Shown: piece after piece, positions 15,929-24,075 of the stretch
How the letters are laid out: the number at the start of each line of letters is the position of its first letter
Numbering within the stretch: the first letter of the stretch is position 1
IMG/VR virus record: IMGVR_UViG_3300021431_004525
DNA: 64,000 bases
Reading direction: 5' to 3' (one strand)
Source of the DNA: a virus
Lineage: Duplodnaviria > Caudoviricetes
Translations under genes and position numbers: made by a program
The notes under the pieces: model-generated
Databases searched by the model: none
Seen by the model: the letters and a program-made list of their open reading frames with translations, nothing else
What the model was told of the DNA's origin: nothing

Positions 15929-16255
15929 TCAAGCAGCCAACTTGTTAATAACCTGCTTCAACCTACTTGTCACAAAGCCTTTCGTCTTGTTGTCCTTGAT
16001 GGTGTCGCTCAACATGTCGCAGATATAGTTCAGCGTTGGAATGACATTCTCAGATGTAATGTTTCCGGTACCGACTTTTGCAGCGGCCTTGCTAAGTTCC
16101 TCTCCATGGCTTTCAATTGCAAGAATGATAGCGTCCTTATCCCAAGCATGGATGCCGGTGAATGTGGCCAATGCCTTGCCGTTCTTACACACTACTACGT
16201 TTCCGTTCTTGTCCATCACGTCAAACGTACCTACTTTTGTCACAATCTGTACCAT
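15929..16255 (-). CDS. early hypothetical protein ending -KLAA
   Basis: ORF with highly-expressed-type codons. Confidence 0.8.
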   Translation of the reverse strand: MVQIVTKVGTFDVMDKNGNVVVCKNGKALATFTGIHAWDKDAIILAIESHGEELSKAAAKVGTGNITSENVIPTLNYICDMLSDTIKDNKTKGFVTSRLKQVINKLAA

Positions 16256-16326
16256 AATTCTTAGATGTTTTTATTAATCAATGTTTAACTTAATCTGTCT
16301 ACCATACTCATTTGAGTACATGGGGG

Positions 16327-16400
16327 TGACTCCGGCGTGGCTCGAACACGCGACACCAAGTTTAGGAAACTTGTGCTCTATCCAACTGAGCTACGGAGCC
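16327..16400 (-). tRNA. tRNA-Arg(CCT)
   Basis: GGCTCCG/CGGAGTC acceptor, D-arm GCTC/GAGC, anticodon CAAGT-TTCCTAA-ACTTG, T-loop TTCGAGC; CCA not directly encoded. Confidence 0.93.
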
Positions 16401-16592
16401 TGTTTGTAGGTTTTCCTATTCCACCTACCAAGCCACATGGACTTAACTCTCACCATGTTCTACCGGTCAATTCCGTTTGGGTCAGGACTAATCTAACACA
16501 CCTCTCGGCTTGTCTGCACTTTCTTAGGGTGCTTGCGGCCTAATTGAAAACCCACTATTGGTAAAACTCCTTCAGCCTATTGTCCTTAGTTT

Positions 16593-16835
16593 TTATTCCA
16601 TTGTCGGCATAAATAGATTTACAAAATGAGCATAAAATAGGCTTGTGGCATCAGCTAATTGACTTATATTTTCATTCTCGGCAGTGATTGAAACAAAAAC
16701 AAAGCCTTCATAGATGTCCTCTTTATATGAAAACTTGGTGCCAAAGGCTGGAAAAACTGAATTGATAAACTCTTTCAGTTGCTCTAATTCTTTTTCATTT
16801 CCACTTTTTTCGATGTTCAAAAGCTGAATCTTCAT
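16593..16835 (-). CDS. hypothetical protein
   Basis: promoter 16867, AGGAG 8 nt upstream. Confidence 0.7.
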   Translation of the reverse strand: MKIQLLNIEKSGNEKELEQLKEFINSVFPAFGTKFSYKEDIYEGFVFVSITAENENISQLADATSLFYAHFVNLFMPTME

Positions 16836-16974
16836 AATCTAATCTCCTATTAATTTAAATTGACACTGCAAAGTTACGAATAATTTTTTAATCTACCAAA
16901 CTTTTTTGCTTAAAGAAGTTTAATGAATTGTTAATTGATGTTAATGTGTACTCATTCGAGTACATGGGGTCTGC

Positions 16975-17280
16975 TCATGCTGCCTCCACGAAGAAGATAG
17001 GATATTTTCCACGTTCATTGTCGCAATTGTAATACCGGAAGTCATTAACGATATTCTCAAAGGTACTGCCATTGGTAAAGGCATTATCCTCAACATGTTT
17101 CTTACTTGTGGGGAAAGGTTTTTGCCACACATTGTTTACACGCATCATGCAAGGGTGCATCCATATAGGTTCACCATTCTCATAGGCTTTCTTTGCCATA
17201 GGTGCTGTAACTTGTTTCACTTTGTGAGAAATACCATCACAGTCTACCATTTGAAAAGTCATTCCTTTATAGCGTAACAT
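16975..17280 (-). CDS. early hypothetical protein ending -VEAA
   Basis: ORF. Confidence 0.8.
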   Translation of the reverse strand: MLRYKGMTFQMVDCDGISHKVKQVTAPMAKKAYENGEPIWMHPCMMRVNNVWQKPFPTSKKHVEDNAFTNGSTFENIVNDFRYYNCDNERGKYPIFFVEAA

Positions 17281-17348
17281 ATTCTTATTTCTAAATAATA
17301 TTTGTTATTTGTTACTCATTTGAGTACATGGGTAGGTAATGTGGGGGC

Positions 17349-18038
17349 TTATGCGGCCTCCACGTTACACACCTTACCTTTAAGACTACTCTCTTTGTAA
17401 TAGACGGCTTCACCATTTGAGAAAACACCGCCACAGACGTAAACCTCCTCACAGATATACCGGCACACATCGTCGACCTCATCAGATAGTTTTTCTATCA
17501 TACCATTCAGCCACTTCACAAGGTTTTTCCTTTGGATTTTAGCCAATCCGGCATTCCATGTGTCACACCATGAATCGGTGACATTTTCTTGCCATGTGTC
17601 GGCAATATCATCCACAAGAGACTCTATGGAATAATTTTCAGAAATCCGGAAGTGATTACCGTAATTATCAGATATACAAATGTCCCAATCGTAGTTCATT
17701 CCGGAATAATGACCGCTATGAACATAAATCTCCTGACTGAATTCAAAATTGTTGAAATCCATGTCAGCACCCTTTTTACCGAAAGCATACCATTTAGACT
17801 TAGACGAAAGACAAGATGCGTGCATACTATCTTGATAGGAGTTACGGTCATTGTAGTCCACAGGGTCAAAACCCTTTTCCTTTGCGCTTTCTTGTGCAAA
17901 GTCGATATCGCAATCATAGTCAATGGAATCCTTAAATACCTCGACCTCCTCCTCAAGTTCATCATCATAAGCGGTTGTTGTATCGCCTACGACATAATAA
18001 TTACGTGCATTGATTTTGTGGAAATTAGGACAACTCAT
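17349..18038 (-). CDS. acidic early protein ending -VEAA
   Basis: 229 aa, C-terminal FSNGEAVY motif seen in phage/plasmid early proteins. Confidence 0.8.
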   Translation of the reverse strand: MSCPNFHKINARNYYVVGDTTTAYDDELEEEVEVFKDSIDYDCDIDFAQESAKEKGFDPVDYNDRNSYQDSMHASCLSSKSKWYAFGKKGADMDFNNFEFSQEIYVHSGHYSGMNYDWDICISDNYGNHFRISENYSIESLVDDIADTWQENVTDSWCDTWNAGLAKIQRKNLVKWLNGMIEKLSDEVDDVCRYICEEVYVCGGVFSNGEAVYYKESSLKGKVCNVEAA

Positions 18039-21789: not shown

Positions 21790-21882
21790 CATTCTTTAGC
21801 ACGGAATATTTGCATATATCAGATTTTATGACTATCTTTGCACCATCAAATTTAAGTTTAACGTTTTAATTCATTTAAAGTT

Positions 21883-22407
21883 ATGGCATACGATATTAAC
21901 AACATCATGGCAAAGGAAAACGCAATGCGCGACCCTAAGAACGTAACAGAATGGAAACAGCAACGAGAAATGTTACGCGACTATCTGATACCCATCAGCA
22001 CTGCTGAAAACGTCTCTGTGGGCGAAATATACGGCTTCTGCCCCTATATCATTTATGTAAGGATGGACGCACTGAAGCGAGAGGATTGGCCGAATAACAT
22101 CGCCGAAAATTCCATCTATATCGACTTTAAAATAGACCTTTTTAACAAAAAGGTGGAAGTACATCAAAATGGGCATATTTGGCTTTCACCATACGACAAA
22201 ACAACACCAAAGTACAAGTATCTCGCCATGAAGTCAATGCAAGACGTATTGGTCGACAATGGTGGCAAGAAGTTCCGCAAACAGGGCTATAAGGACATTA
22301 AAGACCTTGCCAACAAAATGCAGAAGTATTACGCACAAGTCATGGAAGCCGTCAATGACTACACCGATGGCTATCCATACAAACAAGGAACAAAACAAGC
22401 GGCATAA
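21883..22407 (+). CDS. early hypothetical protein ending -KQAA
   Basis: promoter 21809. Confidence 0.85.
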   Translation: MAYDINNIMAKENAMRDPKNVTEWKQQREMLRDYLIPISTAENVSVGEIYGFCPYIIYVRMDALKREDWPNNIAENSIYIDFKIDLFNKKVEVHQNGHIWLSPYDKTTPKYKYLAMKSMQDVLVDNGGKKFRKQGYKDIKDLANKMQKYYAQVMEAVNDYTDGYPYKQGTKQAA

Positions 22408-22518
22408 ACAGATTTTTTAAATTAATACTATGTTGTTAGTCCGTTCAGTCCGAGAGGATAGGACGGATTTTATTTTACTTACATTTTGAAACATAAATTA
22501 ACATATTATCAATGGATG

Positions 22519-22553
22519 GGTCGGAGATTATACTCTAAGGTGTCACCCTTACC
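22519..22553 (-). ncRNA. 35-nt hairpin sRNA motif, copy 6 (within a longer non-coding transcript)
   Basis: GG TAAGG GTGACA CCTTA GAGTATAATCTCCGACC; enclosed by ATGGATG/CATCCAT. Confidence 0.7.
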
Positions 22554-22595
22554 AATCATCCATCGTTGGTTTTACAACTCCGAAACTCGTTTGTG

Positions 22596-22738
22596 TGACT
22601 CATTGGGGAATCGAACCCCAAAGGTGAACATTTTTGCCGACAGCACCATCTGTTTCCGACTACTCATGCGCTGACACCATACTTTATCATAGGATTGGTA
22701 GTCCTAAAAGCCTCCAAGCCAGCCTTATCGTTTGAGCC
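22596..22738 (-). ncRNA. tRNA-like RNA (acceptor + T arm, large insert)
   Basis: TTGGGG-TTCGATT-CCCCAA followed by TGAGTC-A pairing with 5' GGCTCA; promoter 22778. Confidence 0.55.
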
Positions 22739-22971
22739 TTTGTTATTTGAAAGAACGCCTTTTATTTCTTTTGACGATGCAAAGGTACAAAATAATCTTG
22801 AATTTCTATGTTAATTGACTGTTAAAAATTCGTTAAAAAACGTTCAATTGTTAAATAAACTAAATCCACTAAAAATAAATTCATTTTTTCTTGCATATAT
22901 CAGTTTTTTTCCGTACCTTTGCATCGTGAAATTAAAACAAATAGTAATAACTCTTTAATACATTATTTATT

Positions 22972-24075
22972 ATGACACAGATTTTGAATATCAACGGACA
23001 GAGTAACGTGAGCGTTAATCCTAACACAGAGACGGGCGCACAGCGTGTAGCATGGCAGCAGTTCGGTACAATCTGCGAGAAGGGTGCAACCATCCACGAC
23101 GTTATGGCAGACGTAACAAGTGAAAACCGCATTAACTATGAGGTTGGCGAAATGCCACTGATGCGTGTACCTTCTGAAATGGTTGAGGCTATCCGCAAAG
23201 GTGAGGCTTTCGATTGGAATCCGTCAGTGTCCGACATCATCAGCACCCATAAGGCTACGCTGCGCACTGACAATAACGACACACTTGGTATCGTAGGTAA
23301 GGGCTACGGAATCGTGCAGAACAGCAAGGCTTTCGACTTCATGGACTTCATTAAGGAGGCAAGCGGTAGTGAACCCGTTATCGAATCCTATGGCGCACTT
23401 GGCTATGGCGAACGTATGTTCATCACTGCCACACTTGGTGAGGATTCGTATCTTAACCCTAACGACGCAATCAAGAACTATGTGGTGTTCACTAACTCAC
23501 ATGATGGCAGTGGCGGTGTCATGGCTTTCTTCACCCCGATTCGTGTGATTTGTCAGAACACGCTGAACATGGCTATTAAGGGCTGCGCCAACAAAGTGGT
23601 GTTCAAGCACACTTCTAAGGTCGACGAGCGTCTTGATTGGACTATCGAGCGCAACCGCAAAATTGCTGCTGAACTTTTCAGCAAGTCAGTGAAATTTAGC
23701 GACAAGTTCATGGAGCGTATGCTTGGACTCAAGGAGGAGACCATCACTGCTGAATATGCACGAGACTTCGTAGGCAAGTTGTGTCTGACTGCTCCCGCCT
23801 TTGAACTTTGGAAGAAGGCTGACTTCAAGGCTGACCACGTTGAGGAAATCAGCACACGGACAAAGAACATTATGGCAGCCCTGACGGACAGCATCGAGAA
23901 TGGAGTAGGACAGGAGTACAATCGTGGCACAAAGGTGTGGCTGCTGAATGGTGTGACTACCTACCTTCAGAATGAGAAAAATTGGAAATCTCAGGAAGAC
24001 AAGTTCAACGCTATGATGTTCGGTAGCGCACAGAAGAAGGTCGAGGATGCTTACCAACTGCTGATGGCTGCGTAA
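22972..24075 (+). CDS. DUF932 / TIGR03299-family phage-plasmid protein, ending -LMAA
   Basis: LGIVGKGYGIVQN, NSHDGSG, TPIRVICQNTL, GTKVWLLNGVTTY motifs. Confidence 0.85.
   Translation: MTQILNINGQSNVSVNPNTETGAQRVAWQQFGTICEKGATIHDVMADVTSENRINYEVGEMPLMRVPSEMVEAIRKGEAFDWNPSVSDIISTHKATLRTDNNDTLGIVGKGYGIVQNSKAFDFMDFIKEASGSEPVIESYGALGYGERMFITATLGEDSYLNPNDAIKNYVVFTNSHDGSGGVMAFFTPIRVICQNTLNMAIKGCANKVVFKHTSKVDERLDWTIERNRKIAAELFSKSVKFSDKFMERMLGLKEETITAEYARDFVGKLCLTAPAFELWKKADFKADHVEEISTRTKNIMAALTDSIENGVGQEYNRGTKVWLLNGVTTYLQNEKNWKSQEDKFNAMMFGSAQKKVEDAYQLLMAA

Follow-up and report, generated by a model that had tools for sequence, protein, structure and literature searches.

What it means for eight neighbouring genes of one phage to end in the same two alanine residues is the question raised by a 64,000-nucleotide stretch of viral DNA, referred to here as the window (IMG/VR virus record IMGVR_UViG_3300021431_004525; Duplodnaviria, Caudoviricetes). 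The genes lie in a block at 15.9–24.1 kb, and the same window encodes a ClpX-type unfoldase. An original prediction, made by a model from the letters of the window, described the endings as ssrA-like degrons, systematically placed on early proteins, which would be cleared once the phage ClpX is made. As judged from the sequence and its homologues, the terminal Ala-Ala is a real, selected signal at the level of the protein. The reading preferred here, to which a probability of roughly 0.57 is given, is that it is a genome-encoded, ssrA-like degron of the ClpX C-motif-1 type, carried by a subset of the early proteins with host-type promoters and by the phage ClpX itself.

The block contains 14 credible genes in a divergent layout around 18.3 kb. 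All nine C-termini quoted in the original prediction were located in the sequence, eight of them ending in Ala-Ala and one in Glu-Val-Ala, so that eight of the 14 genes carry the dipeptide and one further gene ends in Val-Ala; the other five end in TME, YNK, RVG, YND and IKN. Outside the block, a greedy call of open reading frames (ORFs) across the whole window found an Ala-Ala end in one of 94 ORFs, and this one is ClpX, which bears out the claim that the unfoldase is the sole credible case elsewhere (Fisher's exact test, block against the rest of the window, p = 7e-8). The background was taken from three related jumbo phages, here called G002, G003 and G004, two of which are rated complete and one about 76%. 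Ala-Ala ends 3 of their 1,252 ORFs (2/338 in G002, 0/436 in G003 and 1/478 in G004), and against this background the probability of finding eight or more among 14 is 3e-18. An additional Ala-Ala-ending ORF at 16337–16543 was rejected as spurious because it overlies a tRNA-Arg gene.

Alanine is more frequent in the block as a whole (6.1% against 4.2% in the rest of the window), and its G+C content is also higher (0.36–0.43 against about 0.32). Among the 14 block proteins, alanine occurs nine times at position -1, eight times at -2, and not at all or once at each of the positions -3 to -10; since the enrichment is confined to the last two positions, the higher alanine content cannot account for the pattern. 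A motif at the stop codon that acts at the DNA level was also considered and rejected. The alanine codons vary among the genes (GCT, GCA, GCC, GCG), both TAA and TGA serve as stops, and the tagged genes have nothing in common downstream, with the exception of the two genes ending in VEAA. A short DNA repeat that spans the stop codon is common to this pair, and the two are therefore not fully independent.

The closest relative of the window is found in the nearest IMG/VR record (G001, 124,868 bp; locus L001). Of the eight gene pairs compared between the two, seven differ in their terminal alanine codons (8 of 16 codons), always silently, and over the same pairs the residues at -3 and -4 change (VEAA to VAAA, HKAA to KEAA, RFAA to TLAA and KQAA to AEAA). 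Loss of the dipeptide among homologues had been named as an outcome that would speak against the original prediction; among all homologues recovered, 67 of the 71 distinct ones at 70% identity or more keep Ala-Ala, several at 46–67% identity retain it on rewritten tails, and the block genes that lack the tag also lack it in their homologues. In G001, all 12 ORFs that end in Ala-Ala fall outside the known virion genes.

How the ending is attached to the folded protein was examined on two of the eight tagged proteins, of 174 and 179 residues. In the 174-residue family, a conserved core ends in GYPYK and is followed by a tail of 0–15 residues, with Ala-Ala in 38 of 57 distinct homologues. The core of the 179-residue family ends in C.NLGI, after which a subset carries an extension that is hypervariable, differs in length and is polar, often acidic; Ala-Ala is present in 14 of 39 distinct homologues, including cluster representatives at less than 50% identity. 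AlphaFold2 models agree with this division: the 174-residue protein (predicted local distance difference test, pLDDT, 87.7) ends in 13 residues of coil with lowered confidence, and in the 179-residue protein (pLDDT 93.3) residues 163–179 are coil, the last nine of them at a pLDDT of about 60. Going by the alignments and the models, a free linker with a fixed end is the anatomy of an appended tag in these two families. A Foldseek search of the PDB gave no fold match at E ≤ 0.001 for either model, and the two proteins may represent new folds.

ClpXP recognises a C-terminal Ala-Ala-COOH. In Escherichia coli, Ala-Ala is the dominant short C-terminal degron and acts via ClpXP (PMC10862746). Regulators that naturally bear an Ala-Ala tag include the repressor of mycobacteriophage BPs (PMC4557955) and sigma-AntA (PMC3933326). 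The best candidate reader of the phage endings is probably a ClpX-type protein. In this phage each gene itself encodes the Ala-Ala, in frame and immediately ahead of its stop codon, and neither the window nor four related phage genomes yielded a transfer-messenger RNA (tmRNA) gene, which indicates that the tag is not added by trans-translation. An origin or reader of the RqcH type, which adds alanine tails, was rejected: NFACT_N is absent from four phage records, in a search in which the Bacteroides thetaiotaomicron control was also without a match.

The phage ClpX, which ends in NKEAA, is encoded at 61135–62301 on the minus strand, with the ATG at 62301 as the most likely start of an ORF that extends to 62361. 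With the ClpX profiles NF003745 (NCBIfam) and TIGR00382 it scores 479 bits (cut-off 359) and 466 bits (cut-off 371), which is equivalog level, and the motifs GFVG, ITRDV, RKH and IGF are present. The residues with which ClpX reads the ssrA tag lie in the pore-1 loop (Y153/V154), the pore-2 loop (T199/V202, within ITRDV) and the RKH loop (R228/H230); Val154, Thr199, Val202, Arg228 and His230 are retained, and Tyr153 is replaced by Phe. These same residues contact the Ala-Ala-COO- group in the recognition complex solved by cryo-electron microscopy (PMC7652416). The N-terminal zinc-binding (C4) adaptor domain is absent, the alignment beginning at profile position 40, and 110 of 121 members of the ClpX clade have no cysteine in their first 60 residues; ClpX without its N-domain degrades GFP-ssrA (PMC7652416). 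The IGF loop, by which ClpX docks to ClpP, is kept in 113 of the 121. Among 120 database homologues of about 380–390 residues, 55 end in Ala-Ala and 14 in Val-Ala after variable preceding residues, so the unfoldase carries the tag too. A strict coupling of an Ala-Ala-ending ClpX to a tagged block was tried and rejected, as one related locus (L002) combines a ClpX ending in KKVA with an Ala-Ala block and G004 combines a ClpX ending in KKAA with a block of single-alanine ends.

Directly downstream of ClpX, at 60597–61034 on the minus strand, lies a gene for PTH2, a peptidyl-tRNA hydrolase of the archaeal/eukaryotic type (89 bits). The pairing is kept in G004 (28284–28682) and in relatives of about 392 kb, and is missing from G001; the pair may form a ribosome-rescue or quality-control module.

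Five related records were searched for ClpX, and four contain it; G002, G003 and G004 each encode, in addition to ClpX, a strong match to ClpP (194–260 bits). Catalytic motifs were inspected in G002 only, where the Ser, His and Asp motifs could be recognised by eye. The same three phages also encode a weaker ClpP-like protein, which may be a prohead protease. These relatives, at 43–55% identity, suggest that a clpP gene is present in the phage studied here. Cellular machinery of the same kind is seen in a rumen Bacteroidales genome, which has a clpP-clpX operon, a tmRNA tag reading GENNYALAA, and a ClpX that contains the zinc domain and ends in REA. The N-terminal region of phage ClpP resembles that of a Bacteroidales ClpP. 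In a rumen Paludibacteraceae locus (L188:797-2721), MGY takes the place of the phage IGF tripeptide in the cellular ClpX, and the ClpP of this family member has the 45-residue N-terminal extension that is common to the phage ClpPs. The window also encodes a two-ring Hsp100 of 806 residues (ClpC/ClpA/ClpB-like; 50982–53402, plus strand), which does not end in Ala-Ala. A VGF tripeptide stands at its residue 673, its Walker B sequences are IFFIDD in the first ring and VLLLDE in the second, and it scores below every equivalog cut-off.

From these features the following course can be proposed. A ClpX ring, formed by the phage ClpX without a zinc domain, by the host ClpX, or by both, would bind the exposed Ala-Ala-COOH in its axial pore, and the tagged protein would be unfolded and fed to a ClpP encoded by the host or the phage. 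The tagged proteins would then have short lifetimes set by the protease, their levels would follow early transcription and drop once it ends, and the Ala-Ala-ended ClpX would limit its own level. We infer ClpX as the reader, degradation as the result of binding, and timing as the purpose. A stronger version of this proposal is tentative and has somewhat less than an even chance: a clade of Bacteroidota jumbo phages would itself run a proteolysis programme directed by the tag, in which an adaptor-free, Ala-Ala-ended ClpX with an ssrA-type pore and a phage ClpP act on a dedicated set of tagged early proteins, the ClpX turns over itself, and the upstream residues, in the pattern [K]-[K/V/A]-[E/K/L/V]-A-A, tune the lifetimes. 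If that were so, the virus and not the host would set the clock by which early proteins are cleared, perhaps including proteins for anti-defence or takeover.

That the block is early is suggested by its promoters. The window, part of the genome of an uncultured jumbo phage, contains 34 occurrences of the Bacteroidota promoter motif TTTG-N17-23-TAnnTTTG against 5.9 expected, and these are densest at 0–24 kb. Ten of the 14 block genes each come with a separate -7 box (TAnnTTTG); the other four follow in short operons. The window also encodes a UvrD-type helicase, a deoxynucleoside monophosphate kinase, a Dam-type methylase, GmrSD, TnpB and PTH2. Its close relatives, contigs of about 392 kb, carry a T4-type portal and a terminase, and no close relative was found in the GenBank phage collection. 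The TnpB gene (IS605 OrfB/Cas12f-like; 55193–56389, plus strand) is 60% identical to a gene from a rumen Paludibacteraceae bacterium.

Several observations weigh against the degron reading in its present form. ClpX is itself preceded by a host-type promoter (62331–62362), the same as that of the block, and is therefore predicted to be early too and made together with the block. The proposal of a timer that starts once the phage ClpX is made does not sit well with this arrangement, and a constitutive short half-life would, by the promoter sequences, fit better than a delayed timer. Tagging is also restricted to a subset of the promoter-driven early genes: none of about 40 other ORFs at 1–15 kb, amid the same host-type promoters, ends in Ala-Ala, and the description of early proteins as systematically tagged holds for the eight of 14 in the block and fails beyond it. 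Distant relatives, at 43–58% identity, have a single terminal alanine or none. G004 has Ala-Ala on ClpX only, and its four orthologues of tagged genes end in KKA, IKA, YKA and LVA; of its 478 ORFs, 12 end in Ala, these four included; the orthologues in G002 and G003 are mixed or without a terminal signal. Neither the window nor G001, a 125-kb relative that is about 32% complete, yielded a clpP gene. The phage probably infects Bacteroidota of the gut or rumen, and the promoter motifs and the TnpB match suggest a Bacteroidales host.

The residue that precedes the dipeptide is a further difficulty. Among 57 distinct Ala-Ala tails, position -3 is occupied by Glu in 16, Lys in 15, Leu in 7, Val in 6, Asp in 4, and Pro, Ser and Thr in one each, with no Gly or His; Glu and Lys thus account for 31 of the 57 and Leu for only 7. 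In the E. coli screen, Leu at -3 is favoured, Gly, Pro, His and small polar residues are unfavourable, and Ala-Ala alone is necessary and not sufficient (PMC10862746). The phage tails avoid these unfavourable residues almost completely, yet few of them have the favoured Leu. Given this preference, the phage tags may be weak, tuned, or read with a different specificity.

The same difficulty makes room for a reader that does something else. In this explanation, which is rather unlikely, Ala-Ala would be a selected docking signal whose outcome is not degradation, the bound protein being remodelled, disassembled or translocated by ClpX or a ClpC-like ATPase, or the dipeptide would be recognised by another reader, for example of the PDZ type. 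ClpX and ClpA of jumbo phages have been proposed to be translocases or assembly chaperones (PMC7824862), the two-ring Hsp100 with its VGF tripeptide would be at hand, no clpP is seen in the window, and the preference for Glu and Lys at -3 is unlike the optimum of E. coli ClpX. Against this stand the ClpP-docking IGF loop, conserved almost throughout the ClpX clade (113/121), and the ClpP genes of related phages, two of them with complete genomes; moreover, no candidate for an alternative reader was identified.

It is less probable still that the tails are decoys which flood the host ClpXP and so delay the turnover of tmRNA-tagged products, antitoxins or phage proteins. With own host-type promoters ahead of 10 of the 14 block genes, the proteins could be abundant early, and their tails imitate the end of the host tag; yet tails with Glu or Lys at -3 should be poor competitors of LAA tags, a competitor built out of eight folded proteins, each of a distinct conserved family, would be costly, and the lineage increases its ClpX and ClpP capacity, which works in the opposite direction. 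Saturation of the host ClpXP, which the original prediction had offered as its alternative, thus fits poorly with both the Clp genes of the lineage and the residue at -3. That the endings carry no signal at all, and reflect chance, composition, shared ancestry or repeats, or a stop context that favours termination, is hardly credible. The block is indeed richer in G+C and alanine, and in two of its genes a common repeat spans the stop codon, but the pattern has probabilities of 7e-8 to 3e-18, is enriched at the last two residues only, shows varying codons and stops with silent changes only, and is held on tails rewritten in sequence and length and in families at less than 50% identity, against 3 such ends among 1,252 in G002, G003 and G004.

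To our knowledge, the only phage proteins known to undergo regulated proteolysis are single regulators (lambda O, CII, the Mu repressor, and the repressor and integrase of BPs), and host proteases carry it out. The mechanism proposed for the block, as far as the sequence allows it to be read, points to the known ssrA-like C-motif-1 route, and what would be new is that at least eight early proteins form a coordinated set and share one tag with the unfoldase, in a phage lineage that has ClpX and ClpP of its own. With the ssrA tag and the C-motif-1 degrons of ClpX (Flynn et al., 2001, 2003, as cited in PMC7652416 and PMC10862746), the phage endings have in common the terminal Ala-Ala-COOH on an exposed tail. 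They differ in being encoded by the genes without trans-translation, in bearing no likeness to the upstream part of the tag, in having mostly Glu or Lys and not Leu at -3, and in occurring on eight neighbouring genes and on the unfoldase itself.

A precedent among phages is the integration-dependent immunity of mycobacteriophage BPs and its relatives, in which the repressor bears C-terminal ssrA-like tags and the integrase, too, is tagged at its C-terminus (PMC4557955; PMC9635641). There too the lifetime of a phage protein is set by a genome-encoded ssrA-like tag, and the change of one alanine stabilises the BPs protein. The BPs tags concern two regulators of a temperate switch, are lost on integration and are acted on by the host protease, whereas here an early block of a jumbo phage is tagged, with no attP logic and in a lineage with its own ClpX and ClpP. 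In Streptomyces, the sigma factor sigma-AntA has a conserved C-terminal Ala-Ala, proposed to be a ClpXP signal (PMC3933326). As in the phage proteins, the terminal Ala-Ala is conserved as the sole unusual feature, and its change to Asp-Asp raises sigma-AntA activity; sigma-AntA differs in being a single cellular regulator and not a coordinated viral set.

Homologues of ClpP, ClpS, ClpA and ClpX are carried by jumbo phages (Iyer et al., 2021; PMC7824862). The survey that describes them proposes that they serve as chaperones or translocases or act against the host, without naming any phage substrate or tag, whereas a candidate substrate set is defined here by a shared terminal dipeptide. A literature search found no report on substrates of phage-encoded ClpX or ClpP, and none that describes a phage ClpX with the tag alongside a block of tagged genes. 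If the degron reading is true, the Clp machines of jumbo phages gain a defined substrate set and a purpose, and the terminal dipeptide becomes a simple rule to predict short-lived viral proteins in metagenomes. The natural tags and the minimal ClpX could also be used for tunable protein depletion in Bacteroides.

Pfam and PHROGs gave no function for seven of the eight tagged proteins; the eighth is a DUF932 protein, and two have confident models without a PDB match. The name takeover proteins, used in the original prediction, consequently has no assignable function behind it for any of the eight. Three of them are encoded on the minus strand. The 108-residue protein at 15929–16255 ends in NKLAA, the one tail of the set in agreement with the host-type LAA, and seven of seven distinct homologues end in Ala-Ala, including KLAA at 68% and SSVAA at 56% identity. 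The 101-residue protein at 16975–17280 ends in FFVEAA; its close homologues end in VEAA or VAAA, and distant ones in IKA or IEVE after a conserved YPIFF motif. The acidic 229-residue protein at 17349–18038 ends in NVEAA, and all ten distinct homologues end in Ala-Ala, with the rewritten tails RKVAA and EKVAA at 46–50% identity; a protein atlas search with this protein yielded nothing.

The remaining genes of the set lie on the plus strand. A 95-residue protein (18469–18756), with its own promoter at 18370–18401, ends in YHKAA, its homologues in KKEAA and more distant ones in VKKA, YIKK or PYIK. The 115-residue protein at 19497–19844 has the near-equivalent ending KEVA; an orthologue at 75% identity in L182, a 12.6-kb locus with seven Ala-Ala-ending genes, ends in IKAA, and one in L180 ends in GVA. 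The all-helical 179-residue protein (20505–21044) consists of a core up to CKNLNI and a disordered extension that ends in MADAA. At 21667–21789, a 40-residue ORF ending in KRFAA is probably a gene, without a promoter of its own, and homologues at 90–95% identity end in TLAA or RLAA. The 174-residue protein (21883–22407) has its core up to GYPYK and a variable tail ending in TKQAA. The last gene, at 22972–24075, encodes the 367-residue DUF932/TIGR03299 protein, which ends in LLMAA; relatives at 76–99% identity end in LMAA or LLAA, and those at 43–56% in LSA, KIA, LVA or LAC. No functional data on DUF932 were found in the literature.

Outside the window, a SprT-like metallopeptidase of G001 (110840–111544; L028:10840-11544) ends in HYAA, and in a distant Bacteroidota phage contig a SprT-like gene that stands beside a homologue of the 179-residue protein ends in REMA (L186:2805-3464).

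The block also contains a tRNA-Arg (CCT) gene at 16325–16400 on the minus strand, and several palindromes occur in the window. The palindrome GTACTCAAATGAGTA occurs on the minus strand at 9285–9299, 16305–16319, 16949–16963 and 17313–17327 (4–5 copies seen against 0.56 expected). It stands after the tRNA-Arg gene and after both VEAA genes, where it lies within the repeat shared by the pair, and it may be a processing or termination site. Two near-perfect palindromes resembling parS follow stop codons directly: TGTTCCACGTGGAACA at 21046–21066, after the gene at 20505–21044, and TTTCACGTGGAACA at 24077–24096, after the DUF932 gene. Right after the tagged block, at 24440–26182 on the plus strand, lies a gene for a type IV restriction enzyme of the GmrSD type with both its N- and C-terminal domains.

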